Origin: Myxococcales bacterium
GTDB taxonomy: Bacteria > Myxococcota_A > UBA9042 > JABWCM01 > BTVJ01
DNA length: 26,732 bases
Direction of reading: 5' to 3'
Assembly (NCBI GenBank): GCA_045863395.1
Contig: BTVJ01000097.1
Coordinates: 1-26,732 of the forward strand
Position 1 is the first letter of the stretch; every line of letters begins with the position of its first letter. This document shows positions 1 to 21,794 of this stretch, one piece after another. The notes under the pieces were generated by a model. It was not told the DNA's origin. It ran no database searches and saw nothing but the letters and a program-made list of their open reading frames with translations. The translations under genes and the position numbers were made by a program.

Positions 1-49
1 CCCGCCCCCGCCAAGTCGTACCAGGCCACGGGGTACGGCGAGGACTTAC
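1..49. mobile_element. Possible right end (terminal inverted repeat) of an IS66-family element, truncated by the window edge
   Basis: 28..49 reads ACGGGGTACGGCGAGGACTTAC, which is GTAAG... read inward, the typical IS66 terminus. FGE homology starts abruptly right after it. The in-frame upstream residues (PAPAKSYQATGYGEDLR) do not resemble the expected PxHxVxLTxGF stretch. No transposase is in the window. Confidence 0.4.
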
Positions 50-54
50 GGTGG

Positions 55-711
55 ATGGGCGAGACCCCGGTGACGCAGGCCCTCTGGACGGCGGTCATGC
101 GCGACAACCCCAGCCGGTTTGCGGAGCAGGGAGCGCAGCGGCCCGTCGAGCACGTGAGCTGGGAAGACTGCCAGCGCTTCCTCGAGCGACTCGGAGGGCT
201 CGTGCCCGGGCTGCGCCCCCGGCTGCCGACGGAGGCCGAGTGGGAGCGCGCCTGCCGGGCGGGAACGGACGCCGCGCGCTACGGCGGGCTCCACCACGTC
301 GCGTGGCATGAGGGGAACAGCGGCGGCGAGACCCACCCGGTCAAGCAGAGGCTCCCGAACGCCCTCGGGCTGTACGACACGCTCGGGAACGTGTGGGAGT
401 GGTGTTCGGACTGGCTTGGTCCGTATCCACCAGCGGCGCGGGTCGACCCGGCAGGCGCGCCTGCGGGCTCGGAGCGGGTCATCCGGGGCGGCTCCTGTCG
501 CAGCCCGGCCAGGAGCGTCCGGGCGGCCTGCCGGCACGGGGCCCCGCCCGAGATCCGGCGCGGGACCCTGGGCTTCCGGCTCGCCCAAGGTCACGACCAG
601 CAGGCCAGCCAGCAGGCGGCGCAGACGACGGCCCCAGCGGAGGGCCAGCGGAGCGGCCCGGAGCCTGGGGCCGTCGTTCGCGCCGCCGGTCGTCGTTCCT
701 CTCGGGGGTGA
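55..711 (+). CDS. FGE-sulfatase (SUMF1/CLec-fold) domain protein, 5'-truncated or interrupted
   Basis: Motifs ETPVTQALW, NPSRF, PVEHVSWEDC, RLPTEAEWERACRAG, PNALGLYDTLGNVWEWCSD, RVIRGGS and LGFRLA. The frame is open back to base 1, but the N-terminal part of the domain is absent. Confidence 0.85.
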   Translation: MGETPVTQALWTAVMRDNPSRFAEQGAQRPVEHVSWEDCQRFLERLGGLVPGLRPRLPTEAEWERACRAGTDAARYGGLHHVAWHEGNSGGETHPVKQRLPNALGLYDTLGNVWEWCSDWLGPYPPAARVDPAGAPAGSERVIRGGSCRSPARSVRAACRHGAPPEIRRGTLGFRLAQGHDQQASQQAAQTTAPAEGQRSGPEPGAVVRAAGRRSSRG

Positions 712-753: not shown

Positions 754-2580
754 CTACGACACGGTTCGCGCGAGCCGCAGCCCGATCGAGGCGGCGCCGT
801 TGCCCGGCTCATGGTACCGGCGTGACTCCGACGTCACGCGCTGGCCCGGGAAGCGCTGGGAGCCCCCCCGAACGATGCGATGTGGCATCCCCTGTTGCTG
901 TTGCGCCTGCTCCGGTCCGGCCCAGTCGACCACCGCGCGGTCCGGGTAGGGGGCCGCCCAGTCCCAGCACCACTCGGCGACGTTCCCGATCATGTCGTGC
1001 AGCCCCCACGGGTTCGCTCCTCCCTCCCCGACGGGCCGGGTGTCGTCGGCCTTCGGGGCGCGAGTCTGGCCCCCGTCCGCTCCGCCTGCCCCAGCGTTCC
1101 TCTGCGCCTGGCATGCGTACTCCCACTCCGCCTCGGTGGGCAGCCGGTAGCCATTCGCTCGTCGATCCCACGACACCGTGCCGTCGTCGACGCCAGCATA
1201 GACGGGCGTGCGCCCGGCGATGGCCGACAGCGCGTTGCAGAACTGCACGGCTTCGAGCCAGGACACGCCCACCACGGGATGGTCGGGCTTCGCATCATCT
1301 GGTCGATCAAGGCCGGTGATCGCCTCCCACACGGTCCAGGTCAAGGGGACGGCGCCAAGCGCGAATGGCCGGGAGAGCCGGACGCTTCCGCCTCGCTCGC
1401 CTCTCCTCAGGGTCCCGGCTTTGACGCAGATCATCTCGATGCGGTCCGACGACGGCACGAAGCTCCCGGGGTCCTGGGCAAGGTACATGGCGTCCAGCAT
1501 CTCAGCGGGCAGCACCTCGACCGCTGATCGGCGTGGCAGCCGCGAGCGGCCCACCCCAGGGCACGCGGTCAGCAGAGCCAGGTGCATCGCCGCCGCCGAC
1601 TTGTAGCGCTGCGTAGGATCCAGGCGGAGAGCCATGTCGACGACCGCGCTCAGCTCCGCCGACACGCGCTCGCCGCACTCGACGGCGAGGGGACGCATCT
1701 TTTCAGGGGAGCGGGCACGCAGCACGCTGGCGGTCGGCTGCTTTCCCGAAAGCAGCCTCCAGAGGGTGGCGCCCACCCCGTAGACGTCAGTCCAGGGGCC
1801 GAGCCGGTCGCCCTCTTTGACGCCCTCCTTACTGTACTTCTCGACGTACTGCTCCGGCGCCGCGTAGCCCTCGCTGCGAAAGCGCGTGGCCGTCTCTGAG
1901 CCCCCAGGGCCGACCTCCAGGCGTGCGGCGCCGAAGTCCATGAGCCGCGCGGGCTTGTTCTCGCCCTTGCGGACGTACACGTTCCGCGGCTTCACGTCCT
2001 GGTGGACGAGGTGCCTTGTCCCGTCAATGACGTGCAAGGCGGTGAGAACGTCGAGCGCGAGTCCGACCGCCTCTTTCACCGGCACGCGCTTCCCTGCCTT
2101 GGCCTGCTCCTCGCACCACGCCTCGGCGTCCCTCCCGTCCTCGTAGGGCATCACGATGTACGCCGTGCCATGGTCCTGCACGATGTCGAGGACCGGCATG
2201 AGGTTCTCGTGCGGCGGCAGCGCCTTCCCCCGCTCGGCCTCATTGAAGAACTTCCCAAGCTGCTCGGCGAACTCGGTGGAATTGTTGGGAGTGACGCGGA
2301 GGCCGTCCTTGCCGCGATTCACGCCCTCGTCGGGGAAGAACTCCTTGAGCGCGACCCGCGCGCCCGTCTCCCAATGGACGGCGAGGTACACGAACGCGAA
2401 GCCTCCCTCCCCGAGCATGCGCACCACCTTGTATTGCTCTTCAGCGACCAGGCTCCCAGGCTTCAGGGACAGGATGCGACGCTCGGCCGCCTCCGAAGGC
2501 ACCGGGGCACACTCGGTGACGTGCTCGGCGCGCGGCTGGGCACACGTATCACACAAGGCGTCGCTCTCGAACACGGCCAC
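754..2580 (-). CDS. Ser/Thr protein kinase fused to a C-terminal FGE-sulfatase domain
   Basis: Kinase motifs LGEGGFAFVY, VALKEFFP, HQDVKPRN, DFG, GYAAPEQY and WTDVYGVG. FGE motifs PVVGVSW, GYRLPTEAEWEYAC, NPWGLHDMIGNVAEWCWD, RIVRGGS and IGLRLART. GTG start after GGGGAG; no transmembrane segment visible. Confidence 0.92.
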   Translation of the reverse strand: MAVFESDALCDTCAQPRAEHVTECAPVPSEAAERRILSLKPGSLVAEEQYKVVRMLGEGGFAFVYLAVHWETGARVALKEFFPDEGVNRGKDGLRVTPNNSTEFAEQLGKFFNEAERGKALPPHENLMPVLDIVQDHGTAYIVMPYEDGRDAEAWCEEQAKAGKRVPVKEAVGLALDVLTALHVIDGTRHLVHQDVKPRNVYVRKGENKPARLMDFGAARLEVGPGGSETATRFRSEGYAAPEQYVEKYSKEGVKEGDRLGPWTDVYGVGATLWRLLSGKQPTASVLRARSPEKMRPLAVECGERVSAELSAVVDMALRLDPTQRYKSAAAMHLALLTACPGVGRSRLPRRSAVEVLPAEMLDAMYLAQDPGSFVPSSDRIEMICVKAGTLRRGERGGSVRLSRPFALGAVPLTWTVWEAITGLDRPDDAKPDHPVVGVSWLEAVQFCNALSAIAGRTPVYAGVDDGTVSWDRRANGYRLPTEAEWEYACQAQRNAGAGGADGGQTRAPKADDTRPVGEGGANPWGLHDMIGNVAEWCWDWAAPYPDRAVVDWAGPEQAQQQQGMPHRIVRGGSQRFPGQRVTSESRRYHEPGNGAASIGLRLARTVS

Positions 2581-2738
2581 CTCCCCACGATGCGAGGACC
2601 ATCACGCCCCTCGGCCTCGGAGACCCCCTCACGAGCGTCGGGTTCGCCTCCCGACGATAGCCGATCACGGGTGAGCGGGGTAGAGGAAATGTGGTGCAGA
2701 GTCTGGAGGGACGAGGCGGGGAGGCTGGTGGGTCTCTT

Positions 2739-2769
2739 GGGGGGCGGCCGGCAAGTGGGGCTGCCCCCC
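2739..2769. terminator. GC-rich stem-loop just downstream of the C39 gene
   Basis: GGGGGGCGGCC-N9-GGCTGCCCCCC, 13 nt beyond the C39 stop codon; no U-tract. Confidence 0.4.
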
Positions 2770-2782
2770 CGTAGTGCCTGGC

Positions 2783-3547
2783 TCAGTAGTAGATGCGTGT
2801 AACGGCACCGGAGCCGACCCACCCATCGCCCAGCTTGCGGGTGGTCGCGGTGGTGTCCCAGGGGTCCAGGTAGGTGAAGTGGCTCCACGAAGTGCCGGTG
2901 CTCCCGTACCCGCTGACGACCACCCAGTGGTTCGTGAAGCGGTTGGACTTGGCGACGACGAGCGACCCGGCGTCGAGCAGGCTCTTGAGCGCCGAGACCG
3001 TGGTGAGCGAGCCCGTGCCCTTCCACTTCAGCCCGCCCGATCCGTCGAAGTCGGCCACCTTGGCCCAGTACACGCTGCAGCCGGAGGCGTAGCCGCCGTT
3101 GTTCTTGAGGTAGGTGTTGAGGGTCCCCGGGTTCACGGACGCGCCCCGGGCCTTCAGCGCCATGGCGGCGGCCGTGATCGCGCACCCGGCGGGGGTCTTC
3201 GTTCCACACGTGCCGATGGTCGTGTTGGAGCAGGTCCCGAGCCCATTGCAGGCCCAGCTCGTGTTGTTCTGCGAGAAGAACGAGGACACGGAGGTCAGCT
3301 TGGCGTACAGGTTGTCGTACGGCGTCGCGGTCTCCTCCGGCTGCTCGTCGGCGGCGTCACCCTCGATGCCGTAGCCCCCGCCCTCGCCGTCGCACCCCGC
3401 GACGAAGGCGAAGAGAGCGATGGCGAGCAGGACTCGCCACACGAACGCGAGGCCGAAGGACGCGACAGGGCGTCCACTCTCGGCGGCCGCGCCGCTCGGC
3501 TGCGCGGCGCCAGGCGCGGGCGCCAGAGTCAAATGTCGGGACATCAT
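2783..3547 (-). CDS. C39-like (papain-fold) cysteine peptidase, predicted lipoprotein
   Basis: ATG at 3547 follows AAGGAG. A hydrophobic stretch ends in the lipobox FVAG-C, then an acidic linker. Catalytic pattern FSQ..W, GCAITAAAM, NPGTLN, HWVVV and DPW (Cys-His-Asp). The ORF-track extension to 3961 overlaps the bEBP gene and promoter and is not credible. Confidence 0.85.
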   Translation of the reverse strand: MMSRHLTLAPAPGAAQPSGAAAESGRPVASFGLAFVWRVLLAIALFAFVAGCDGEGGGYGIEGDAADEQPEETATPYDNLYAKLTSVSSFFSQNNTSWACNGLGTCSNTTIGTCGTKTPAGCAITAAAMALKARGASVNPGTLNTYLKNNGGYASGCSVYWAKVADFDGSGGLKWKGTGSLTTVSALKSLLDAGSLVVAKSNRFTNHWVVVSGYGSTGTSWSHFTYLDPWDTTATTRKLGDGWVGSGAVTRIYY

Positions 3548-3637
3548 GCGGTCTCTCCTTCCGGTCTCCACCGAAGCCGTGGCAGGGAGAAGCGCAACCA
3601 CCCGGCTGCGACCGCCCTGTCTGGTGCTGGCAGACAG

Positions 3638-3653
3638 AGCATGGCCCGTGCCA
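3638..3653 (-). promoter_or_regulatory. Sigma54 -24/-12 promoter of the C39 gene
   Basis: Minus strand TGGCACGGGCCATGCT versus consensus TGGCACGNNNNTTGCW, with exact GG-N10-GC spacing, about 90 nt upstream of the ATG. Confidence 0.8.
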
Positions 3654-3778
3654 GGCGACCTCGGGGACGACGTGCCAGCGCGAAGTGGCTCGCAACGCTG
3701 CGTACTCACGATGTTTCTTCGGTCGAGGCGGCGCGAAGCGGTCCCCGAGTGAGTCGCCATCTCTGGCCGGAACCCCGC

Positions 3779-3815
3779 CGTACACGGTTCGCCGTACCGT
3801 ACGATTTGGTTCGGT
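3779..3815 (-). promoter_or_regulatory. Putative upstream activator sequence (bEBP binding site) for the C39 promoter
   Basis: Minus strand ACCGAACCAAATCGTACGGTACGGCGAACCGTGTACG. Its last 14 nt match 6431..6444 (GCGAACCGYGYAYG) and end 125 nt before the -24 box. Confidence 0.6.
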
Positions 3816-3834
3816 GCAGGGTGCTCTGCCTTTG

Positions 3835-5457
3835 CTACGGGCCCTGATTCGGCTTCTCGAAGGTGCGGTACACGAAGGACTTGAACTGGGGCGAGTACGG
3901 TATGCCGAGGAGGTTCGCAGTCGCCAAGTATCGCTGCTCCTTGCCTTTCGTAGCCTCCCAAGCGGCTCTGATCTGCTCCCGATCAAGCTGCTTGTAGGCG
4001 TCGAGTTGGAGATTCCCTGGCTCCTGGCGGGTCTCGCCACTGCCCGTGATCGACTCTCCCGTCGATGTCGTCTTGTTGGTCGAGGCCGCGTATGCCGCCG
4101 TCTGTTCAGCGATGAGCTGAGAGACATCCAGTCGCCTGCCCCGGACACGGTCGCGGTGCCAGGCTGCTTCGGCTGCCCCCTTGAGCTGACGAACGTTTCC
4201 GGGCCAGTCGAAGCTCAACAGCTTGAGGACATCCTCCGGGAGCAGGGGCGGGAGGGTTGCCTCGTCAGGGTTCTCCGGTTCGAAACACGGATCCCAAAGA
4301 TTGTTCTCGGAGGCTCCAGCACCCATTCGCAGGTAGTGCACGAACAGCGGGGCAATGTCGGGCCGTCTGGATCGCAGCGGCGGCATCTTGACGACAAATG
4401 TTGCGAGTCGGGTGAATAGCGCCTTGGGGAACTTTCGCTGCCGGACGAGGTGCGCCAAGTCGTCGTTTGCGGCGGCAACGGCGCGGCACTTCACGGGGAG
4501 TGGTTTCTCGGACCCGACTGGGGTGAATTCCGGGCTGTCCGAGATGGCGCGGAGCAGCATCGGCTGCAGCTCTTTAGAGAGCTTGTCAATCTCGTCAAGA
4601 AAGACCGTCCCATCGGCCGCCGATTGAAACGCGCCTTTCCTGTCCTTCGCTGCGCCGGTGAAGGAGCCTCGCACGTGGCCGAAGAGTTCCGACCCTGCCA
4701 CGCCCTCTTGAATCGCCGCGCAGTTCAGGGGCAGGTAGGGCTTCTTGGATCTACTCGACAGATCATGCACTGCGCGAGCGACCAGCTCCTTCCCCGTCCC
4801 AGGCTCCCCGACGAGCAGCACTGGACTCGTGGCGTCTTTCACGTCCCGAATCCGACGCCGGAGGTCGTTCACCTCGCAGCTCTCCCCGAGGATGGTATCC
4901 GCTGCCGTTGAGCACCGCCGCCTCGGCGCCAGGTGAAGCAGCAGCAGCACGTAGTGCCCGAGCTGGATGCAGACCCCCTCCTTGACCTCGTCCTGCGTCA
5001 CTGTGACCTGCCCGCTCCGCTCCACGCCGCCGACGATCACCCGGAGCCAGCCGGCTGGCCTCGACGCTGCGTAGGGGCCCGGGGTCAACCTGACGCCGCC
5101 AGCGCCGGGCATCCTGAATGTGACCGTCTCGTTGCCCTCCTGCGCCGACACGACGGGCGCCAGCACCTGGCGCTCCTCGGTGCCAGGCCTCGCGAAGACG
5201 AGCCGGCCGAGCTTGACTGCCTTGCGCTGGTCAAACTCCTTCCAGAGGTCGTAACGCAGCCCGATCCGCCGGATGTCATAGTCGCACACGATGGTGAGGG
5301 CAGGGCCGCTCTGCTCGTCCGGGCTCTCCGCGGGCGCCGGCGGCGGCTTGTCCTGAACGGTCCTCTGGCGTCTCTCCGCCTCGGGCATCCCTCCCGGCGC
5401 CTCGCGACGTTCGACGCCCATCGCGCCATGGCCCCGGGCATCGCGTCCTTCTCTCAT
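3835..5457 (-). CDS. Sigma54-dependent transcriptional activator (bEBP): degenerate FHA-like N-terminus, AAA+ core, atypical Fis-type HTH
   Basis: Motifs GEPGTGKELVARAVH, LNCAAI, SELFGHVRGSFTGA, VFLDEID and WPGNVRQL. ATG at 5457 follows GAAGGGAG; the start is uncertain. Confidence 0.9.
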   Translation of the reverse strand: MREGRDARGHGAMGVERREAPGGMPEAERRQRTVQDKPPPAPAESPDEQSGPALTIVCDYDIRRIGLRYDLWKEFDQRKAVKLGRLVFARPGTEERQVLAPVVSAQEGNETVTFRMPGAGGVRLTPGPYAASRPAGWLRVIVGGVERSGQVTVTQDEVKEGVCIQLGHYVLLLLHLAPRRRCSTAADTILGESCEVNDLRRRIRDVKDATSPVLLVGEPGTGKELVARAVHDLSSRSKKPYLPLNCAAIQEGVAGSELFGHVRGSFTGAAKDRKGAFQSAADGTVFLDEIDKLSKELQPMLLRAISDSPEFTPVGSEKPLPVKCRAVAAANDDLAHLVRQRKFPKALFTRLATFVVKMPPLRSRRPDIAPLFVHYLRMGAGASENNLWDPCFEPENPDEATLPPLLPEDVLKLLSFDWPGNVRQLKGAAEAAWHRDRVRGRRLDVSQLIAEQTAAYAASTNKTTSTGESITGSGETRQEPGNLQLDAYKQLDREQIRAAWEATKGKEQRYLATANLLGIPYSPQFKSFVYRTFEKPNQGP

Positions 5458-5643
5458 GGCGCGTCTCCCTTCGTGATGTTGCTGGCGACCCCCGGTACGC
5501 GATCCACCCATGCCACTCCCGTCCCACGAAGACCCGATGCAAACACGGCTCGCCGTTGGCCGTCAAGACCCAGCCGCGAGGGGAAGGCCGAGGCAGACAC
5601 CGACCGCGGCGCCCGCCAGCGTCGGCGCGGTCCACTCCGAGCA

Positions 5644-6000
5644 TCAAGCGGCGTGGCGGAGCTCGGCGCGGATGACGATCTCGTCGAACGGGGCGGAGAG
5701 GTGCCCCTGCGTGTCACGCTCCAGGAGGCCCAGCTCCACGAGCTGGGTCACGTCCACGTGGACGTTCTTGTAGTCGCGCTCCAGGTGCTTCGCGAGCTGC
5801 CGGATGCTCAGACCCTCCGTGCGGGCGACGAAGCGAAGGAGCTCGAGGCGCCGCTCGGTGATTGCGGCGAAGAGCTCCCGCAGGCTGCCAAAGGCGAGCC
5901 GGGGTGTCACGTTCGCACCTGACTCGCTGCGTGTCCATGCTTCAGCGAAGGCTGCGAGGGCTGCCGCGGGCGACTGCACCTCGATCTCGATGCGCTTCAT
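5644..6000 (-). CDS. Winged-HTH DNA-binding antitoxin (HVO_A0114-like family)
   Basis: LAFGSLRELFAAITERRLELL...SIRQLAKHLERDYKNVHVDVTQLVELGLLE...PFDEI. The ATG overlaps the toxin stop (ATGA), with a GGAGG RBS. Confidence 0.85.
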   Translation of the reverse strand: MKRIEIEVQSPAAALAAFAEAWTRSESGANVTPRLAFGSLRELFAAITERRLELLRFVARTEGLSIRQLAKHLERDYKNVHVDVTQLVELGLLERDTQGHLSAPFDEIVIRAELRHAA

Positions 6001-6298
6001 GGTCTCCACCTCCATCTGGTCAGACGCTCGCAGTCCGTCACGAAGTCCTCGATCAGCTGGTCGAGCGACGTGAAGTCGTAGGGCTCTTCGTCGTCGCCGT
6101 AGTGACGGTGGTCGCCCTTGCCCCGCTCGTTGTCGTATCGCACGACGCATTGACCCGGCCGAGCGCAGTACAGCCGGTACTTCACGCCCTGCGAACGGGG
6201 CGAGCCCGTACCCTCAGGCCGGGCAGGCTTCAGAGGACCATCTCGACGGTGACGTCGTCTTGGCTGCCCTTGAAGCGGTAGAGAAGCCGAGCCTTCAT
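5997..6298 (-). pseudogene. DUF6516 (TumE-family) toxin, inactivated by a nonsense codon and a frameshift
   Basis: MKARLLYRFK...VEMVL*SLP has TGA at 6230..6232 where the family has W (WxLP). KYRLY...VRYDNERGKGDHRHY...Y.FTSLDQLIEDF then continues in a shifted frame. Confidence 0.8.
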
Positions 6299-6333
6299 AT
6301 GGCGTAGGATGCCATAGGGTTCGTTCCGTTCAA
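6298..6333 (-). promoter_or_regulatory. Putative sigma70 promoter (leaderless) and operator palindrome of the TA operon
   Basis: Minus strand TTGAAC-N16-CATCCT with an extended TG, 7 nt before the ATG and no RBS. An inverted repeat TATGGC-N7-GCCATA (6298..6316) covers the -10 box. Confidence 0.5.
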
Positions 6334-6410
6334 GGCCGTTGCTCCGAGGCTCGTTCCTCGCCTTGGGCATCAGAGTCGGCGTGCGACCCCTTGGCTCATG
6401 GTTCAGCCGT

Positions 6411-6444
6411 GCGGTTCGACCGAACCGAACGCGAACCGCGCATG
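6411..6444 (+). promoter_or_regulatory. Putative upstream activator sequence for the M23 operon promoter
   Basis: GCGGTTCGACCGAACCGAACGCGAACCGCGCATG contains the inverted repeat GCGGTTCG-N13-CGAACCGC and repeated CGAAC units. It ends 125 nt before the -24 box. Confidence 0.6.
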
Positions 6445-6516
6445 CGACTCCAGCGTACCGCACGCAGGGGTGCGGGGCGGGTGGGGATGCGTCCAACTTA
6501 TCAGGCGACTGTCTCG

Positions 6517-6547
6517 TAACATTATGAAATCATGCATGTGTTTCATA
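6517..6547 (+). promoter_or_regulatory. AT-rich, IHF-like bending site between the UAS and the sigma54 promoter
   Basis: TAACATTATGAAA resembles the IHF consensus YAANNNNTTGATW with 2 mismatches. It overlaps a TATGAAA-N11-TTTCATA palindrome and is conspicuously AT-rich for this DNA. Confidence 0.45.
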
Positions 6548-6569
6548 TCGTCAGGTCTCCGCCACGCGC

Positions 6570-6585
6570 TGGCACGCCGCTGGCA
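6570..6585 (+). promoter_or_regulatory. Sigma54 -24/-12 promoter of the M23-M23-ATPase unit
   Basis: TGGCACGCCGCTGGCA, with exact GG-N10-GC spacing, about 60 nt upstream of the ATG at 6645. Confidence 0.8.
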
Positions 6586-6644
6586 ATCCATGCAGCCATG
6601 ACCCGGCGGTGTTCGTCGGGGCAGCAGACCCACGGAGGAGACCC

Positions 6645-7298
6645 ATGAAGCGTTGGCGAACTCTCGTTCTGTTCGCGGGTGCCCTGTTCCTGGCCGCGTG
6701 CGATGTCCCCGCCGTCGACGGCGACGCCGCGTCGCACGACCTCGCGACCCAGGAGGGGGCGGCGAGCATCCCGAAGCTCCTGTGCCCGCTGGCGTCCTGC
6801 ACGCAGAGCGGCTTCGGGTTCGGCAGCACGTGGACGTACAACCGCTGCCCGCAGAAGCTGTCGAACGGGCAGGCCGGGCCCTACAAGAAGCACACGGGCG
6901 TCGACCTGAAGGCGAGCGCCGGGACCGTGGTGAAGGCCTCGGCAGCGGGCACGGTGAAGCTCGTGTACTCGGCGGGTGCCGGCTGGGGCAGCGCCATCCT
7001 CGTCGAGCACAAGGACGCGAGCGGCGCGGCCTACGTGACCCAGTACATGCACGTCAACTCCTCGGTGTCGACCGGGGCGACCGTGAAGGCGGGCCAGAAG
7101 CTCGGCACCATCGCCGCGATCACGTCGCCCCACCTGCACTTCGCGGTCTGGAACGCCCCATACGCGTCCACGGCGCAGCGCGGCGCGCTCCCGAACTGCA
7201 GCGTCTCGGGCGCATGCAGCAACGGCACGTGCTTCGACGGCAAGTACACGGACCCGGCGTGGCCGTCGAAGTTCGTGAACCCCCTCAGCTACTTGTAG
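6645..7298 (+). CDS. M23 family metallopeptidase, predicted lipoprotein
   Basis: GGAGGAG RBS; lipobox LAA-C; HTGVD (HxxxD), YMH, HLHF (HxH) and VNPLSYL. Confidence 0.9.
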   Translation: MKRWRTLVLFAGALFLAACDVPAVDGDAASHDLATQEGAASIPKLLCPLASCTQSGFGFGSTWTYNRCPQKLSNGQAGPYKKHTGVDLKASAGTVVKASAAGTVKLVYSAGAGWGSAILVEHKDASGAAYVTQYMHVNSSVSTGATVKAGQKLGTIAAITSPHLHFAVWNAPYASTAQRGALPNCSVSGACSNGTCFDGKYTDPAWPSKFVNPLSYL

Positions 7299-7427
7299 CC
7301 CCCCTCCGCGGCGCGGTCGGGCGCCCGCCCGCCGCGTCGCCCCATTCGGGGACGGACCAGCCGCGCACGGTGCGCGGGCCGGCCCGCACCCGACCCGTGG
7401 CCCGGAGCGGTCACACGGAGGAACGTG

Positions 7428-8243
7428 ATGAAGACCTTCGCTACCATGATGCTGGCCCTGCTCGTGTTCGCCGGCTGCGAGCCGCCCGAGGAGGGCGACC
7501 TCGGCGACCTCGCCACCCTCGAGGGAGAGCTCACCAGCTCCGAGCTGATGAACTTGATCTTGGGCGGCACCTACAAGATCACGCAGAGCTACCAGCCCAA
7601 CAAGGTCCACGCGGGCATCGACATTGGGGGCGTCGTCACGAACGTGACCAAGGTGCGTTCCCCGGTGTCGGGCACCATCACGGCGAACACGAGCGCCTGT
7701 GGCAAGGTGGCGATCTTCGACGGCAAGAACACGTTCATCGCCGCCCACATGAGCAACCGCACCACGCTGCCCGTCGGCAGCGCCGTGAAGATGGGTGACT
7801 ACCTGGGCACGACGGCGAGCGTGGTCGGCGGCGGCTGCTCATCCACAGGCACCCACCTGCACGTGGAGTTCCGCGTGGGCAACAACACCTCGCTTGCCCT
7901 CCCCACCGCGGACAACACGAAGACCACCCTGAACCCGCTGACCTACGCGTACCCGCCGTTCCCGGCGCCGGCGCTCCAGTCGCCGGCCAGCAAGGCGACC
8001 GTCAACGCCAAGCAGGCGACGTTCTCATGGCTGCCCATCCAGGGGGCGACGAGCTACCGGCTCCAGGTGGGCACGCTCACCACCCTCTCCGAGAGCTGCA
8101 CGGGGTGCGCCTACAACGCCGCGGCCTCCACCACGTCTCGGACCATCGCGATCATGCCTGGCAGCTACTACTGGCGCGTCCGTGCTGGCAACTCGGGGCA
8201 GGGCGGCGCCTGGAGCGCGGCGCGGGCCGTCACTGCCTGGTAG
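7428..8243 (+). CDS. M23 family metallopeptidase lipoprotein with a C-terminal fibronectin-III-like domain
   Basis: GGAGGA RBS (alternative GTG start at 7425); lipobox FAG-C; HAGID, AAH, HLHVE and NPL. C-terminal P.LQSP...TFSW....GATSYRLQV...YYWRVRA...WS pattern. Confidence 0.88.
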   Translation: MKTFATMMLALLVFAGCEPPEEGDLGDLATLEGELTSSELMNLILGGTYKITQSYQPNKVHAGIDIGGVVTNVTKVRSPVSGTITANTSACGKVAIFDGKNTFIAAHMSNRTTLPVGSAVKMGDYLGTTASVVGGGCSSTGTHLHVEFRVGNNTSLALPTADNTKTTLNPLTYAYPPFPAPALQSPASKATVNAKQATFSWLPIQGATSYRLQVGTLTTLSESCTGCAYNAAASTTSRTIAIMPGSYYWRVRAGNSGQGGAWSAARAVTAW

Positions 8244-8358
8244 GCCAGGAGGGGGGGACACCGCAATAGCCGAGGCGCGCACCATCATCGACCAGACCAA
8301 CCGCTCGGTCCTCACACCCCACGCGACGGCACCTGCCCCCACTCACGGAGAACATGCC

Positions 8359-10803
8359 ATGAACCTGGACACTCCGCGCCAGCCGGAGCTGCCTGCCTCC
8401 GAGACGGGCGAGCTCCTCCCACCCAAGCCCCACTGCCGGATCTCGACGGGTCGAGGTGAAGCGCCGCCCCCGCTACGCCGCGGCCGGGGCCACCTGAGCC
8501 TCGTCGATCATGCGACTCCCCTGCAGGGCGCCGAGCGCGAGCGGGCCACGGGAGTCTTCACACTCCGACTCGAGGCCACACTGGCCCGCCGGGTAGGCGG
8601 CGCATCCCTCGACGCCGCCGAGGGGCGACCCATCCAGCCTCCGGCCGGGCTCGAGGCGGCGTTCCACACCTGGTGGGGTCTCCTCGACTTCCTCGCCACG
8701 CGAGACGAGCGGCTGCGGTTCCAGCTCCGGCTCACGAAGCCCCGAGGGGTCGGTCGCCCCACCGCAGTGGCGCTCGCCATCCTTGCGGTAGACCCAGACC
8801 CGAGCGCCGTTGCCACGCTGCTCGACGACGCCTGGGGGGACCTGCGCGCGCGGATCCTCGCCATGGCGGAGACCCTGGAGTGGCGCCCAGTGGACGACGT
8901 GAGCGAGGCCGCGGCCCTGCTCGGTCCCTTCCCCTTCGAGTCCGTGGGCGAGCTCTTTCAGCAAGAGGCCAAGGAGCCGCGCACCGGCGCCTACCGCGTG
9001 CAGCCCTTCCGGCTCCGTGCCGACGACCTGTCCCGTGTGCTCGGTGCGCTCGCGTCCCGAGAGGAGGCCACCCTGTTCGCGGCGACCCTGGCGCCGACCG
9101 GGGCGACGACTGCCGAGACGTCCTGTGTCGGCGCTCGGGGCCGTTGCTTCGAGCAACGGGTCCACCTCGCCTCCGACGGCCCCATCCGCGACGACCTGGT
9201 CCACGCCGTCGGGAGCGCCGTGGCCGGGTACGAGGGGCTGATGATCCTGGCCGAGCGAGGGCCCGTCGACGCCCCCGGGCAGCCGCGAGGTGGCTTCTGC
9301 TGGCACGAGGCGCGGGGGCCTGCGATTCCCCTCGCGCTGGCCAACCTGACGGCGGGAGCGATGATCGCCTGGGAACCCAGTCTTGCCCCACCGGAGCTCG
9401 CCCGCGCGCGGCGGCTCGTAGACCCCGTTACCGCGTCGCTGGCCATCCGCCTGCCGGTCCGGTCCATCGACGCCCTGGCCGGCCCCGCTCTGCCCGCACC
9501 GGCGGACCTGCCGGAGACTCATGGTGTGCGGCTCGGGATGACGTCGGTGTGCGGGATCCGCCGGCCGCTGCGCCAGTCCGACGCCGACGCGTCGCTCCAC
9601 ACCTACCTGGTCGGGCGCACAGGGACGGGCAAGAGCACGCTGCTCCTTCGGATCGCCCTCGGGCGCATCGCGGAGGGCCACGGCGTGGCGCTCATCGACC
9701 CCCACGGCGACCTCGCGGACGCACTGCTCGAGCGCATCCCGGCGCACAGGGCCGACGACGTGCTCGTGTTCGACCCGACCGACGTGGAGCGTCCTGTGGG
9801 GCTGAACCTGATGGAGCACGACCCGGCGCGGCCGGAGCAGAAGTCCTTTGTGATCAACGAGGTGCTCGCCATCCTGGACCAGCTCTACGAGATGCGGCTC
9901 GTGGCGGGCCCCATCTTCGAGCAGTACTTCCGGTACGCCTTCCTCGCCATGTTCGGCGACCCCAAGACGACCGTGGACATCACCCTGCTCGAGCGCTTCT
10001 TCGTGGACGGGAGCTTCCGCGACGGCGTGCTCCGGCGTACCCGCGACGGGCGAGCGGCCGCCTTCTGGCGGCAGATCGCGGAGCGGGCGACGGGCGACAC
10101 GGGGCTCGTCAACATGGCGGCCTACGTCAGCTCGAAGCTCACGTCCTTCGTGTCCAACGAGTTCATCACGCCCATCGTGGGCCAGAAACGCAGCTCCTTC
10201 GACCTGCGCGCCTTGATGGACGAGGGCCGGGTCCTCGTGGTGCGGCTTCCCAAGGGTCGCCTTGGCGGGCTGAACACGCGGCTGCTCGGTATGGTGGTGA
10301 TCATGCGGGCGCTGCTCGCCGCCTTGAGCCGCGAGGACCTGCCGGCGGCAGAGCGCCGCCCCTTCCACCTCCTGGCCGACGAGTTCCAGACGCTTGTGAC
10401 GCCGAGCATGGCGGAGCTCCTGGCGGAGGCGCGCAAGTATGGCTTGCGCCTCACCATGGCGAACCAGAACCTGGCGCAGGTGCCAGAGGGTGTGCGGGCC
10501 GCGGTCCTCGGCAACGTGGGGACCGTGGTGGCGTTCGGCCTCGGAGTCTGTGACGCGGACGTGATCGCGCAGACCCTCGGCGACCCGAGCCTGGCACAGG
10601 CGCTCGTCCGCCTGCCGCCCTACCAGGCGGTGGTCCGCCCGACCATCGGGGGGCGTACCCTGGCGCCCTGCCTCGTTCAGACGCCGCCCCTGCCGGACGG
10701 AGCATCTCCGGAGGGGCGCCGCCGCATCGTCGACGCGAGCAGGCGGGCCATCGGACGGCCACGGCAGGCGGTCCTGGCAGAGATCGAGGGGCGCGATGAC
10801 TGA
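8359..10803 (+). CDS. VirD4/TrwB/HerA-like P-loop ATPase (type IV coupling-protein-like) with an uncharacterised N-terminal domain
   Basis: Walker A GRTGTGKS, LIDPHGDL, Walker B HLLADEFQ, EARKYGL...ANQ..AQ and GNVGT. ATG at 8359 follows GGAG; no obvious N-terminal transmembrane helices. Confidence 0.85.
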   Translation: MNLDTPRQPELPASETGELLPPKPHCRISTGRGEAPPPLRRGRGHLSLVDHATPLQGAERERATGVFTLRLEATLARRVGGASLDAAEGRPIQPPAGLEAAFHTWWGLLDFLATRDERLRFQLRLTKPRGVGRPTAVALAILAVDPDPSAVATLLDDAWGDLRARILAMAETLEWRPVDDVSEAAALLGPFPFESVGELFQQEAKEPRTGAYRVQPFRLRADDLSRVLGALASREEATLFAATLAPTGATTAETSCVGARGRCFEQRVHLASDGPIRDDLVHAVGSAVAGYEGLMILAERGPVDAPGQPRGGFCWHEARGPAIPLALANLTAGAMIAWEPSLAPPELARARRLVDPVTASLAIRLPVRSIDALAGPALPAPADLPETHGVRLGMTSVCGIRRPLRQSDADASLHTYLVGRTGTGKSTLLLRIALGRIAEGHGVALIDPHGDLADALLERIPAHRADDVLVFDPTDVERPVGLNLMEHDPARPEQKSFVINEVLAILDQLYEMRLVAGPIFEQYFRYAFLAMFGDPKTTVDITLLERFFVDGSFRDGVLRRTRDGRAAAFWRQIAERATGDTGLVNMAAYVSSKLTSFVSNEFITPIVGQKRSSFDLRALMDEGRVLVVRLPKGRLGGLNTRLLGMVVIMRALLAALSREDLPAAERRPFHLLADEFQTLVTPSMAELLAEARKYGLRLTMANQNLAQVPEGVRAAVLGNVGTVVAFGLGVCDADVIAQTLGDPSLAQALVRLPPYQAVVRPTIGGRTLAPCLVQTPPLPDGASPEGRRRIVDASRRAIGRPRQAVLAEIEGRDD

Positions 10804-10993: not shown

Positions 10994-11653
10994 TCACCGC
11001 CCAACTTGCGCCGCGTCTCTGACGCCCCCCACCACCCCAGCCACCTCGGTGACCAGCCGCGCGATGACCTCGCGCAGCGCCGCGCGGACCGGGGCCAGCT
11101 CCTCGCGCGGGAAGAACTGGCGCATGCGGCCCGACAGGGCGCGGCAGAAGCGGTGGGCGCTCACCTGCACGGCCTCGGACCCCGCGAGCCAGCCGGCGAG
11201 GCGCACCACGTGGACTCTCTCCTCGCCGAGGACGTGGAGCACGGCGCTTCGCCGCTCCCCGTCGAGCAGCGCGGCAAGCGTGTGGAACTGGCAGTGGCCG
11301 GCCAGCTCGTTGAAGAGAAGCGACACGAACCAGTGCTCGGGCTGGCGCACCGTCGGGGCGGGGAGCACCACGTCCGGCAGGGCGTCGAGCCAGGACGCGA
11401 ACAGGGCGACGTGGCGGCCTTCGTCGGCGATCTGGTCCGCGAGCTCTCCCCGAAACTCGACCGGAACCTGCTCCGCGGCTCGCTCCAGGGCGTCTTGCGC
11501 CAGGGCCTCGGCGCGATAGAAGCCGCCAATCAGACTGACCAGATCCGCGGCCCCCAGCGCCCCTCGCGGCACCGACGCCGACTCTCGGGCGGCCAAGTCC
11601 AGCGCCGCGTGCAGCGCCGCGAGCGCCGATGCCGGCAGGCACTCCACGCTCAC
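10994..11653 (-). CDS. Ferritin-like (di-iron four-helix bundle) protein
   Basis: Ligand pattern E...DEGRH...E...EERVH. The GTG start overlaps the pyk stop (GTGA). Confidence 0.7.
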   Translation of the reverse strand: MSVECLPASALAALHAALDLAARESASVPRGALGAADLVSLIGGFYRAEALAQDALERAAEQVPVEFRGELADQIADEGRHVALFASWLDALPDVVLPAPTVRQPEHWFVSLLFNELAGHCQFHTLAALLDGERRSAVLHVLGEERVHVVRLAGWLAGSEAVQVSAHRFCRALSGRMRQFFPREELAPVRAALREVIARLVTEVAGVVGGVRDAAQVGR

Positions 11654-15279: not shown

Positions 15280-16572
15280 TCAGAGGAAGAACAACACCGT
15301 GATGAGCAAGAACACGGGGATCAGCACCAGGGTCGACCAGGCCATGTATCCGAAGAACTCGGGCATCTTCACCTGGTAGGGCCCCGGGGCGCTGGCGATG
15401 GCCCGCACCATGAAGTTGGGCCCATTGCCGATGTAGGTGTTCGCCCCCATGAACACCGCCCCCACGGAGATCGCCGTCAGGATGTCGGGCGCCTGCGCGG
15501 ACAGCGCGGCGAAGCCCTCTGCGCCAGTCAGCCCCTGCGCCAAGGAGCCGAACGCCAGATAGGTGGGCGCGTTGTCCAGGAAGGACGACAGGAGCCCCGT
15601 CCCCCAGAAGAACTTCCACTGCACGTCGATGCCGAGGGCGGCACCCTCCGCCTTCAGCAGGCTCAGGGCCGGGATCATCGTGATGAAGATGCCGATGAAC
15701 AGCACCGCCACCTCGGTGATCGCCTCGAAGTCGAAGTGGTTGGCCTTGCGAATCTCCTTCTGGGTCAATGCCATGGACAGCCCCGCCATGGCGAGCATCG
15801 CGATCTCACGGACCGGCTCCCCGAGGAACAGGATGGAGGCGATGACCCCCGCGAGAAACAGGAAGTTGACCTTCCCGGTCAGGCTCAGCGGCTCGATGCG
15901 CGTCGCGTCGAGGTGCAGCGCCTGTCTCGTCTCCTGGGCATACTTGCGCTTGTCCCAGAGGTAGAAGATGCCGAGGAGCAGCCCCACTGCGGTCAGCCAC
16001 TCGGGCCACAGGGACAAGGTCCAGGTGAACGGAACCCCCCGTAGATATCCCAAGAAGAGAGGGGGATCCCCAAGCGGGGTCAGACACCCTCCGATGTTGG
16101 CCACCAGGAAGATGAAGAAGACAACGATGTGGGTCTTGTGCTCCCGCTCCGCGTTGGTCTGCATCAGCGGGCGAATCAACAGCATGGCGGCGCCGGTGGT
16201 CCCGAGGAAGTTGGCGAGGACCGCCCCTGTCGCCAGGAACGCGGTGTTCACTCCAGGGGTCGCCTTCAGGTCCCCCTTGAGGCGGATACCGCCTGAGATG
16301 GTGTAGAGGGAGCCGAGCAGCACGATGAACGAGAAGTACTCGATCAGCGCGTGGACCAGCTCGCTCCCGGCGCCGTGCGCCAGGTAGAAGGCAGCGACGG
16401 GCGTGGCCAGCGCCAGGGACACGATGGCCTTGTTGCGGTTGCGGTGCCAGAAGTGACCGGCGACCAGGGGGAGGATGGCGATGCAGAGGAGCAACGCGAC
16501 GAACGGGCCCACCCAACCCATGGCGGGGATGATGTGCGCCTCCGCGGAAGCGACGAGCACGAGTCCTGACAA
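15280..16572 (-). CDS. Putative sodium:proton antiporter (ion transporter superfamily membrane protein)
   Basis: Many hydrophobic helices; GTTGAAMLLIRP, ANIGGCLTPLGDPPLFLGYL, SSFLDNAPTYL and YIGNGPNFMV. TTG start chosen after GGGAGG. Confidence 0.85.
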   Translation of the reverse strand: MSGLVLVASAEAHIIPAMGWVGPFVALLLCIAILPLVAGHFWHRNRNKAIVSLALATPVAAFYLAHGAGSELVHALIEYFSFIVLLGSLYTISGGIRLKGDLKATPGVNTAFLATGAVLANFLGTTGAAMLLIRPLMQTNAEREHKTHIVVFFIFLVANIGGCLTPLGDPPLFLGYLRGVPFTWTLSLWPEWLTAVGLLLGIFYLWDKRKYAQETRQALHLDATRIEPLSLTGKVNFLFLAGVIASILFLGEPVREIAMLAMAGLSMALTQKEIRKANHFDFEAITEVAVLFIGIFITMIPALSLLKAEGAALGIDVQWKFFWGTGLLSSFLDNAPTYLAFGSLAQGLTGAEGFAALSAQAPDILTAISVGAVFMGANTYIGNGPNFMVRAIASAPGPYQVKMPEFFGYMAWSTLVLIPVFLLITVLFFL

Positions 16573-17494: not shown

Positions 17495-17701
17495 CTACTC
17501 GTCGCCGACCTTGATGGTCTGGCCGGTGGTCTCCTGCTGGTAGTACTCGGCGGTCATGGACCGCTCGACCACCACGCCGAGCGCCTCCTCGATGTCCTTC
17601 GTGAGGTCGAGGCACTTCTTGCCGGGGGCGCCCTTCACCTCGAAGGAGACTCCGCCGTCCTCGTCGATCACGATCTCGATGTCCCGCTTCGTCACTCCCA
17701 T
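17495..17701 (-). CDS. DUF2997 family small protein
   Basis: IEIVIDEDGGVSFEVKGAPGKKCLDLTKDIEEALG.V......T.EYYQ; the start overlaps the DUF1257 stop. Confidence 0.85.
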   Translation of the reverse strand: MGVTKRDIEIVIDEDGGVSFEVKGAPGKKCLDLTKDIEEALGVVVERSMTAEYYQQETTGQTIKVGDE

Positions 17702-18093
17702 GATCGCACCCGAATCCTGATGTGGTTGTCTTCCGTGACCTCTTCCTCGGCCAGCGTGTAGCCCTTCTTGCGAATCTCCTGCATGACCTTGTGGTAGGCG
17801 TACCGCTGCTTGACTGCCGAGACGAACTCCTTCTCGGTCACGCCCCGCGTCGTCTCGACCCCCCACCAGTCCGCCACGAAGCTGACCCCGCTCGCCGTCA
17901 CCTTGACCCCGATGTCGTAGGTCTTCGAGGCGTGGATGGAGATCGTGGCCTCGGTGGTCTGCCCGAGGTAGCCCTTGACCGTGACGAACTGCTCCGCCTC
18001 GGCCTTGGTGAAGGCGTAATTCAGGTCCTTGAGCGCCAGCTCCAGACAGATCAGGTCGTGGATCTTCGTCTCGACCGATGTGAAGTGCGACAT
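17692..18093 (-). CDS. DUF1257 (Ycf35-like) protein
   Basis: MSHFTSVETKI.DL..L..AL.DL, VKGY.G, YDIG, VADWWG, QRYAY..V......GY. Confidence 0.88.
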   Translation of the reverse strand: MSHFTSVETKIHDLICLELALKDLNYAFTKAEAEQFVTVKGYLGQTTEATISIHASKTYDIGVKVTASGVSFVADWWGVETTRGVTEKEFVSAVKQRYAYHKVMQEIRKKGYTLAEEEVTEDNHIRIRVRSWE

Positions 18094-18096
18094 GGC

Positions 18097-19652
<1,556 letters not shown>

Positions 19653-19653
<1 letters not shown>

Positions 19654-21794
19654 CAGCTCTCCAGGAAGTTGCGGAAGTTGACGAGCTCGCGCTTCATGAG
19701 GTCCGCCTCGTCCTCCACGACGCGCACGAGGTCTTCGAAGGACGCCACCGCCCCGTCCACGTCCGACGCGTCCAGGGCGTCCCGCACCTCGGGCGTGATC
19801 GCCGCGGGCGGGAGCTGCTTGAGCGGCCCCACGGCCTTCTGGATGTCGCGCACGTAGGCCCGGAACAGGCTCACGTTGGAGCGCAATGAGATGAAGTTCT
19901 CCTGGAGCAGCTCGTAGCGCCCCACCAGGTTGCCGCGGAAGCCCTCGAGCTGCTCGTTGGACAGCGCGTGGTCCTGCGCCTCCTGCACCGCGCGGCCCAG
20001 GCGCTCCCGCATGTCCTCGAGCTGCTTCCGCGCCAGCGCGGCTTCGGTCTGGAGCCGCCGGTGTTCCTCGGGTGGGAACTCGGCGAGGCGCGCCTCCGCC
20101 CGCTGCAGGTCGACCCGCAGGCCCTGGAGCTCCTCCTCCAGGCGCGCGATGGAGCGCAGCTTCTCCTTGAGGTCCGGGTGGTCGCCGATGTCTACGGGCA
20201 TCTGGGAGCGCGCGACGAGGTCTGCCTCCAGCGCAGTGATGCGCGCCCCGTGCTCGTCCACCTGCGCGAGGGCCCCGTCCCGCTCCCGGGTCAGCGCCGT
20301 CACCTTGTCTCGCAGATCGTTGACCTCGCGGTTCTTGATGTAGAAGTCCTCGAGGAGCTTTCGGCGCTCGTCCTCCAGGTCCTTGATGCCCACGCCCATG
20401 CGGACCTGCAGGATCTCGCGGTCCTTCTCTTCCAGGTCGCGCCGGAGCTGCGTGATGGCGTTCTCCTTCTCGGAGATCACCTCCCGCAGCATGTTCATCT
20501 TCTTCTCGAGCTGGTTGATCTCCCCGCCGTCCCGGTTGAACGACGTCTGCAGCGCCTCGTTCTCGTCCTTGGCCGCCCGCAGCTCGAACTGCAGCAGGTC
20601 CACCTGGTGCTGGAGCTCCTCGATCTGCCGGTCCTTCTGGCTGACCCGGATCTTCAGCTCCGTGACCGCCTGGGTCGCCTCCCGCGCCGCTCCCCCGAGC
20701 GCGTCGATCTCGTGGTTCGCCTTCTGCAGCTCCCGCTCCAGGTCGGCGATGCGCTCCTCGAAGTCGGTGATCTGCTCCCGCGCCTCCTCCAGGCGCTGGC
20801 GCTGGTGGTGGTGCTGCTCCTTGACCTTGACGTACTTCTCGGTGACCGAGTCCAGCTCGACGCTGTAGCGCACATTGCGCTGCTCGATCTCGCGCATCTG
20901 CGCGCTCAGCTCGGCGTTGATCGCCCGCTGCTCGTTCAGATCCGCCTCCAACCGGGCCCGCGCCTGCTCGACCTGCTTGAGCTGCCTCGCCAGCTCCTTG
21001 GCCTCGCCGCCTCCGCGCTGGGCTGCCTTGTCTCGCAGCTCGTCCCGCTCCTGCTCGGCGCGGCTGGCGCGCTCCGCCGCCCGCGACAGCTCGTCCTGCA
21101 GCGCCGAGACGTCCGCCTCCACGCCAGCCGAGTCGCGCAGCGACATGCGCTGCACCCGGCTGCGGGTGCGCACCGCCGACTTCTCCTCGGGCTCGCGGGC
21201 GTCCCGCGCGGGCGCTGCGGACGTGCGTCGCACGGCCTCCGGTGCCGGCACCTCTCCGGAGTCGGACAGGGGCTTGATGTGCGGCCGCTTGCCCCGGTCG
21301 AACTTCGGCACCGCCGACGTCCCCCCTCGGACGTCCACGGCGGGCTCCTCGGACAGCACCACCGGGCGAGGCTCCGGCACGGCTCGCACAGGACGCGAGC
21401 GCTCGTCACGCTGCGGCTCGCGGAGCCCCGCGTCCGGCGGCGGCTCCTCGACGGCTCTCGTCCGGGGCCCCTGCTTCACCCGAGCGGGCGCCCCCCCGTC
21501 ATCGTGGAACCACAGCTCCACCTCGCCCACCTTGATGGCGTCGCCGCCTGTGAGCTTGGCGACCGTGCTGATGCGCTGATCGTTGAGCGTGGTCCCGTTG
21601 GAGCTGTTCTGGTCCTTGATCTGCCAGGCCCCGTCGGCGAACCAGACCAGGGCGTGCTTTCTCGATACGGAGCCGTTGCGGATGCGGATGGTGACCTCGT
21701 CTCCTCGACCGATGGAGACGGGCGGAGCGCTCGGGACCAGGTCGAGGGTGGCCTCGTTGCCGGTCTCCGTATCCCTGTACACCAGACGTGCCAC
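19653..21794 (-). CDS. FHA domain protein with a long C-terminal coiled coil
   Basis: FHA motifs IGR, SVSRKHA and DQNSSNGT; Pro/Arg-rich linker; about 450 aa of heptad-like E/Q/R/L-rich sequence. The stop overlaps the AAA start (TGATG). Confidence 0.88.

Follow-up and report, generated by a model that had tools for sequence, protein, structure and literature searches.

How myxobacteria turn on wall-lytic enzymes, and whether activators with an FHA domain truly read kinase signals, are questions raised by a locus at positions 754–10,803 of contig C97 (BTVJ01000097.1) of a Myxococcales bacterium; the window analysed here is this whole contig of 26,732 nucleotides (nt), and the genome comprises 8.77 Mb and is 97% complete. 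The locus offers a compact test, with two sigma-54 promoters, one palindrome, one activator, one candidate phosphothreonine and three enzymes. We give an even chance to the reading that the FHA-type activator co-activates the two promoters and so drives one C39 and two M23 wall peptidases, and we infer that the input reaches it from a kinase through its Thr10. The features on which this reading depends are listed below.

754..2580, minus strand: Ser/Thr kinase fused to an FGE-sulfatase-like domain (start GTG at 2580 or 2574), the candidate input kinase.
2783..3547, minus strand: Peptidase_C39_2 lipoprotein (C39), a predicted wall peptidase with lipobox FVAG-C52 and catalytic Cys122/His207/Asp228.
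3638..3653, minus strand: predicted sigma-54 −24/−12 promoter for C39, TGGCACGGGCCATGCT, GG-N10-GC, intergenic.
3785..3799, no strand: candidate activator site A, palindrome CGGTTCG-C-CGTACCG, with an extra half-site at 3808–3813.
3835..5388, minus strand: sigma-54 activator (start possibly as far as 5511) with an N-terminal tail carrying Thr10, an FHA-fold domain, an AAA+ domain and a helical C-terminal domain.
6412..6460, no strand: candidate activator site B, palindrome CGGTTCG-AC-CGAACCG at 6412–6427 plus half-sites at 6432 and 6454.
6570..6585, plus strand: predicted sigma-54 −24/−12 promoter for M23a, TGGCACGCCGCTGGCA, GG-N10-GC, intergenic.
6645..7298, plus strand: M23 lipoprotein a (M23a), lipobox LAA-C19, HTGVD and HLH zinc motifs.
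7428..8243, plus strand: M23 lipoprotein b (M23b), lipobox FAG-C17, HAGID and HLH motifs.

All of the genes named in the initial annotation (kinase-FGE, C39, activator, two M23 genes and an ATPase farther downstream) are present where it had placed them, as are its two outward-facing sigma-54 sites. It had also set the activator between the two promoters; the order is right, but a minus-strand toxin/antitoxin pair (5644–6298) intervenes between the activator and the M23 promoter. Contigs from other samples span the C39–activator, activator–antitoxin, toxin–promoter–M23a and ATPase–pyruvate kinase junctions, and the gene order is therefore not an assembly artefact.

The two sigma-54 sites precede their start codons by 75 and about 105 nt, with ribosome-binding sites present. 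The spacer upstream of the M23a promoter is AT-richer and holds a site one mismatch away from what we take to be the IHF consensus. RpoN is encoded in the genome, and no sigma-70 site was found. Because the genome contains 140 intergenic TGGCAC-N7-GC sites, of which 89 precede a gene, and 45 sigma-54 activators, the sites alone do not single out an activator; it is the shared palindrome that ties both promoters to this one. Outward sigma-54 sites on both sides are found for two of the 45 activators, this one and a flagellar one. Of 13 other M23/C39 genes checked, none is preceded by a convincing sigma-54 site (weak non-consensus matches occur at three). No sigma-54 site was detected in the 400 nt ahead of M23b, of the ATPase or of the kinase, so that these three could belong to the regulon only via read-through. 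Shuffled sequences give hairpins as strong as those 3′ of C39, M23a, M23b and the ATPase. The earlier proposal that the activator switches on all effectors is supported for the two promoters with their common palindrome, and for M23b, the ATPase and the kinase it requires read-through. Two sequencing runs recorded as RNA cover genes and intergenic DNA equally and yield very long contigs; they are therefore uninformative on transcription, starts and operons. Elsewhere in the genome, a minus-strand sigma-54 site at C15:99951 (TGGCACGCCGCTGGCAAT) has a core almost identical to that of the M23a promoter and is not accompanied by the palindrome.

Both upstream regions contain CGGTWCG-N1–2-CGWACCG, and GCGAACCG lies exactly 139 nt upstream of the −24 box at both promoters, close to the 100–150 bp upstream at which activator sites are placed (excerpt of PMC7057263). 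A scan of the 8.77 Mb genome allowing at most one mismatch returned 43 palindrome matches; the only perfect copies are these two, both intergenic, and no further perfect copy in the genome marks a wider regulon. Nowhere but at 6412–6460 does the genome have three half-sites clustered within 60 nt. Because these two sites also served to define the palindrome, two motif-independent tests were applied to 76 intergenic sigma-54 promoters. An in-register match of at least 8 was reached by 15 of 2850 promoter pairs, and a shared palindrome at at least 6 of 7 by 16 of 2845. The palindrome-sharing test also picks up a flagellar promoter pair that flanks its own activator on contig C74, a natural positive control. 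That region (C74:17000–26000) carries flagellar genes (fliL, fliM, flgB/C-like), two sigma-54 activators and a common CGTCAAG palindrome at two outward promoters. Since the palindrome at the present locus is common to both promoters, one dedicated activator likely serves them both, and the activator encoded between them is the obvious candidate.

The activator frame is open over 517 codons. The model of its N-terminal domain (predicted local distance difference test, pLDDT, 77.8) has an FHA fold that aligns well with the ArnA FHA domain (Z 10.4, r.m.s.d. of 2.4 for 98 aligned residues), DgcB (Z 10.0) and GarA (Z 9.3), and the top 41 rows of the structure search are FHA or FHA-like domains, which bears out the earlier label of the activator as FHA-like. 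The domain has a profile match to CT664 FHA (E 0.0027), and a family profile built without this activator matches it at E 1.7e-12. The protein is a divergent member of an FHA-like family starting LTIxxHPD, a subfamily that is mostly missed by Pfam FHA and is present in 41 of 301 genomes of the phylum. No close relative was found: the best match reaches 42% over the FHA and AAA domains, a word search with the FHA domain returned only the query itself, and phmmer against 1.84 billion representatives returned the query and three weak matches. In the AAA+ domain, Walker A/B, the switch Asn, GSFTGA, the second R-finger and sensor II are intact, and the Ser of GSFTGA is shared by 85 of 294 other activators. 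Three confident helices are modelled at residues 470–511, with no Pfam HTH_8 match. By consensus, the LTIxxHPD family possibly ends in two helix-turn-helix units.

The N-terminal tail carries a Thr about 20 residues ahead of the FHA domain. A tail motif of the family ([DE]x0–2T-hydrophobic) occurs in 44 of 63 tails, compared with 13.4 ± 3.1 after shuffling; of 41 relatives, 32 have a Thr aligned with Thr10. DgcB is activated by tail phosphorylation, and DgcB, GarA and OdhI are switched by a self-tail that docks in the FHA domain (excerpt of PMC6733907). The activator shares with these proteins the Thr in the tail before the FHA domain, and DgcB and GarA are among its best structural matches; unlike them, its output is a transcription activator, the docking of its tail is a prediction, and both its tail and its cleft deviate. 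By analogy, the conserved tail Thr suggests GarA/DgcB-like self-tail control of the family, a general testable prediction for a widespread group of activators.

In the mechanism that we propose, Thr10 would be phosphorylated by a Ser/Thr kinase, for which the adjacent kinase-FGE is a plausible candidate, and the phosphorylated tail would dock in the activator's own FHA domain, as in GarA, OdhI and DgcB, and so free the AAA+ ring. The activator would then switch on both promoters together via the common palindrome, and the C39 and two M23 lipoproteins would cut peptidoglycan, most likely that of prey or competitors. The genes, motifs, palindromes, fold and family neighbourhoods behind this mechanism are observed, whereas the binding, the phosphorylation, the activity of the enzymes and the cell they act on are predicted. 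Because the first R-finger and the sensor I threonine have been lost, the activator is possibly weak or partner-dependent; it might act feebly, or with a partner subunit such as a paralogue on contig C64 or C101. The complete chain, in which a cytoplasmic kinase-FGE acts through a rewired activator or hetero-ring on a three-enzyme bacteriolytic battery, with the ATPase added by read-through, on prey contact, is improbable as a working phosphothreonine switch. If true, it would mean that an uncultured myxobacterium from sludge governs predatory wall lysis through a kinase-to-sigma-54 route. The paralogue on C101 (C101:16327–21824) overlaps a gene for a 1256-residue kinase-AAA-TPR protein, and a sigma-54 site at 16227 precedes a gene for a secreted protein.

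The kinase gene follows C39 by about 200 nt. Its product has an HQD motif and is thus non-RD, with the Lys, DFG and APE motifs intact; no membrane helix precedes the FGE domain (the highest 19-residue hydropathy is 1.38), and therefore both the kinase and the FGE domain are predicted to be cytoplasmic. The prediction of a complex between the kinase domain and activator residues 1–158 scored 0.00, which bears neither way. The genome encodes 83 kinases, nine of its proteins being kinase-FGE fusions. On contig C18 (C18:147–15562), three related kinases, two with FGE, surround a 1343-residue M23/Golvesin-like/C1-peptidase protein with no upstream sigma-54 site.

A link between Ser/Thr kinases and FHA-type activators, mentioned in the initial annotation, is upheld as a trait of the family. 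From 67 listed places, 65 were taken (two at contig edges were skipped) and family loci were added; removal of loci from the same genome, one duplicate and one locus without a full gene left 64, of which 42 have wide flanks. Related loci are not independent, and the neighbourhood profiles were home-built and may miss distant members. A kinase lies within about 10 kb at 35 of the 64 loci and within 2.5 kb at 22, with a kinase-FGE fusion in five. The baselines are 4 of 78 generic activator loci (a generic AAA+ word scan gave 80 loci, which served mainly for this purpose) and, in the present genome, 7 of 45 activators and 8.6% of random genes. Within 2.5 kb, only 4 of the 64 loci have a strict outward sigma-54 site ahead of a gene; three of the four genes appear to encode secreted proteins, and the home-built profiles identify no wall peptidase among them. 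M23 genes are found at three of the 64 loci, all at least 3.4 kb away, and C39 and the ATPase at none. The module of kinase, FHA-type activator and sigma-54 is a recurrent one of an already known kind, and the peptidase cargo has been joined to it locally, being found nowhere else searched. The locus is likely a sigma-54 mini-regulon in which two promoters serve wall peptidases, put together locally on the basis of this module. It is not a conserved new system: it was found in one genome only, and the synteny check detected no co-occurrence of the gene set anywhere searched, contrary to the idea of a conserved self-contained unit.

The three lipoprotein peptidases described earlier have lipoboxes and full catalytic motifs, and as far as sequence can tell the predicted wall peptidases are intact. 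M23a and M23b both pass the Pfam cut-off with complete HxxxD and HxH motifs; they are 27% identical, and M23b has an additional C-terminal domain of about 100 residues with no Pfam match, which we presume from its look to be fibronectin-III-like. All three have acidic linkers and basic catalytic parts [isoelectric point (pI) 9.3–9.7], and their codon use is typical of the host (59th–73rd percentile). The best solved-structure match of M23a is zoocin A (E 5e-11), and several endolysin PHROGs also match. Structural neighbours of C39 are fused to SH3b, SpoIID and GH25 domains, and some are viral. Peptidase_C39_2 is listed among the catalytic domains of lysins from phages of Gram-positive hosts (excerpt of PMC8223927). 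C39 itself had no match in phage records and viral contigs and no PHROG match. Relatives of C39 were found in 3 of 400 other genomes, at loci without matches to the other genes here, and relatives of M23a at E 1e-14 in none of the 400 (up to seven candidates were scored per genome); the present genome has 17 M23 genes. The enzymes thus resemble zoocin A/lysostaphin-type M23 bacteriolysins in their intact zinc motifs and C39_2 lysins in their catalytic triad and SH3b- or GH25-fused relatives, but they differ from both in being lipid-anchored with no recognised wall-targeting domain, in their predicted sigma-54 control and in that no immunity gene was found. A paralogue of C39 (C98:17359–21129) has fused cysteine-rich repeats and a C-terminal membrane tail.

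The remaining features of the locus and of its left edge are given below.

1..51, no strand: end of an insertion sequence (IS), which we take from the look of its protein to be IS21-like; it cuts the flanking FGE gene, the contig begins here, and it is identical to C17:5–55.
51..711, plus strand: IS-cut 3′ remnant of an FGE-sulfatase-domain gene that flanks the locus.
5644..6000, minus strand: HVO_A0114-family helix-turn-helix antitoxin, open frame.
5997..6298, minus strand: TumE (DUF6516)-like toxin gene (Pfam), frameshifted near 6231.
8359..10803, plus strand: Patescibacteria-type VirD4/HerA-like P-loop ATPase with a rare N-terminal domain, likely a passenger.

The locus is an island that shows signs of decay, namely the frameshifted toxin and the IS-cut FGE gene. 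The frameshift is identical in an independent sludge run, and on C17 the copy of the IS end runs on into a Mu-type transposase gene. The codon use of the activator is at the 2nd percentile of the genome and that of the kinase-FGE gene at the 10th.

Several observations weigh against the proposed co-activation of wall peptidases. The first R-finger of the activator is replaced by Pro321, a position that is Arg or Lys in 289 of 294 other activators and Pro in none, and sensor I is Ala307, where 290 of the 294 have Thr or Ser and three have Ala. R162 of PspF is described as an R-finger, and R162A reduced ATPase activity in a double mutant (excerpt of PMC4132715). The activator may therefore be impaired by the loss of these two conserved catalytic residues, which, like the decay of the locus, had been overlooked in the initial annotation. 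The FHA cleft retains Gly-Arg; Ser is probably retained too, being kept in one alignment, and the Arg after it is lost. Two alignments disagree on this loop, which has a pLDDT below 50. The context of Thr10 is basic (RQRT), whereas in the family it is acidic. The kinase itself is of the non-RD type and most resembles other kinases encoded in this genome. As for the palindrome, it was derived from the two sites themselves, the two upstream regions give an unremarkable score in plain local alignment (29% of pairs score as high), and no second locus was found with which to compare it; a scan of five other genomes gave one match with no sigma-54 site nearby. With regard to the target, the next match of M23a is DipM, a cell-division enzyme, lipid anchoring fits remodelling of the cell's own wall equally well, and no immunity gene was seen, all called genes in 754–10,803 being otherwise assigned and no dedicated immunity profile having been run.

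These points give substance to two other readings. The island could be decaying: the activator, which once served both promoters, would now be catalytically dead, and the peptidases would be silent, under the control of some other member of the genome's 45 activators, or repressed by the inactive protein bound to the palindrome. The two rare substitutions, the unusual codon use, the damage to the toxin and FGE genes nearby and the absence of any relative closer than 42% all point this way. They are set against a 517-codon frame that is still open and retains every other catalytic motif listed above, a Lys322 that could replace the lost Arg, and promoters, palindromes and peptidases that are undamaged and show no differing letters across the compared runs; we regard a dead activator as unlikely. 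Alternatively, the same regulon may act on the cell's own wall, in remodelling during envelope stress, division, sporulation or the release of outer-membrane vesicles. This would suit the matches to DipM, MepM, ShyA and Pgp3, the lack of an immunity gene in the locus, and the fact that all three enzymes are lipoproteins, two of them with Asp after the lipidated Cys, a lipoprotein sorting rule that is uncertain for this phylum. However, no LysM or other domain anchoring to the own wall was detected, the catalytic parts are basic behind acidic linkers, Peptidase_C39_2 was confined, in one survey, to lysins whose phages infect Gram-positive hosts (excerpt of PMC8223927), and genes as patchy as these are unlikely to be housekeeping enzymes. 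An own-wall role is quite unlikely in our view, and foreign walls are the likelier target.

A broader reading, close to that of the initial annotation, would join the kinase, activator, three peptidases and a coupling-type ATPase into one inducible unit for antagonism or for wall opening in DNA transfer. The ATPase gene stands in line behind M23b after a gap of 115 nt with no terminator-like site, CACGGAG precedes the starts of M23a, M23b and the ATPase (70 of 3246 ATG genes have it), and a large M23 gene lies some 8 kb from the closest genome relative of the ATPase (49%). With this common leader and no terminator, read-through into the ATPase may occur; CsrA (PF02599), a conceivable reader of such leaders, was not found. 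The neighbourhoods argue otherwise. Among 91 ATPase loci (80 metagenomic and 11 genomic; 76 of low GC), none has the activator family or C39 and two have M23, and, as noted, none of the 64 activator loci has the ATPase. The VirB4/relaxase families PF12846, PF03135 and PF03432 were not found in the 97% complete genome (other relaxase families were not searched), and the ATPase has no membrane anchor, its highest hydropathy (1.65) lying inside the ATPase core. The single unit is very improbable, and the claim that the ATPase is its coupling part is not borne out, as there are no partner secretion genes in the families tested and its relatives travel without these genes. The ATPase gene is probably a passenger in this variable island, transcribed with the M23 genes by read-through at most.

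The ATPase has weak above-cut-off matches to PF02534, PF12696 and PF10412 and matches TrwB at E 1e-6 over a short stretch; its codon use is at the 18th percentile. Full-length relatives are few (eight proteins at 39–55%), followed by VirD4-like/DUF87 proteins of Patescibacteria. It resembles the orphan ATPases of that group, at about 40–44% identity over the C-terminal 55%; these are usually far from virB4, with 148 of 5713 such genes near it (excerpt of PMC12102498). Unlike them, it has an N-terminal domain of its own, common to about eight proteins, no membrane helix and a host outside the candidate phyla radiation. Homologues of the ATPase at C32:38800–64093 and at another locus share islands with kinases, FGE genes, a YbjN-like gene and a large AAA ATPase; in two relative loci the ATPase has a small membrane-like gene next to it.

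The closest parallel to the regulatory module is provided by the FHA-domain enhancer-binding proteins of Myxococcus xanthus, reportedly described by Jelsbak, Givskov and Kaiser in 2005. In common are the FHA-fold domain, the sigma-54 AAA+ domain, a neighbouring Ser/Thr kinase and sigma-54 promoters; the differences are the divergent FHA subfamily, the loss of the first R-finger and sensor I Thr, and a cargo of wall peptidases in place of developmental genes. In the full texts searched, which exclude most subscription papers, M23/C39 enzymes are not described as being under the control of an FHA-type activator. Sigma-54 activators regulate myxovirescin and may coordinate predation according to part of a review (PMC6971385). 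As a system for such work, the locus is limited by its occurrence in one genome, its signs of decay and a possibly crippled activator.

The genome has no congener or family member among those searched, its named homologues point indirectly to Myxococcota, and the runs that contain this stretch are labelled sludge or bioreactor. PADLOC reported no defence system, its matches being limited to generic kinase, RtcR, HTH, mad8 and weak HerA. The toxin/antitoxin genes resemble TumE–TumA pairs (excerpt of PMC10584680) in forming an overlapping two-gene unit with a TumE Pfam match, but differ in the frameshift of the toxin, and no evidence supports their membership of the regulon. The FGE remnant at the left edge is 85% identical to the last gene of a cluster on contig C23 (C23:90000–96213) that resembles this edge, with a MoxR-like AAA gene, a large FGE-fused protein and a small FGE gene; a convergent LTIxxHPD-family activator (E 4e-23) comes next and is cut at the repeat-bearing contig end. 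To the right of the locus, the minus-strand gene at 10994–11653 overlaps that of pyruvate kinase and has no Pfam match, although we take it from its motifs to be ferritin-like. Farther on, at 17495–21794 of the minus strand, an FHA-coiled-coil gene, an AAA ATPase gene and two small genes come in succession and seem to form one operon.

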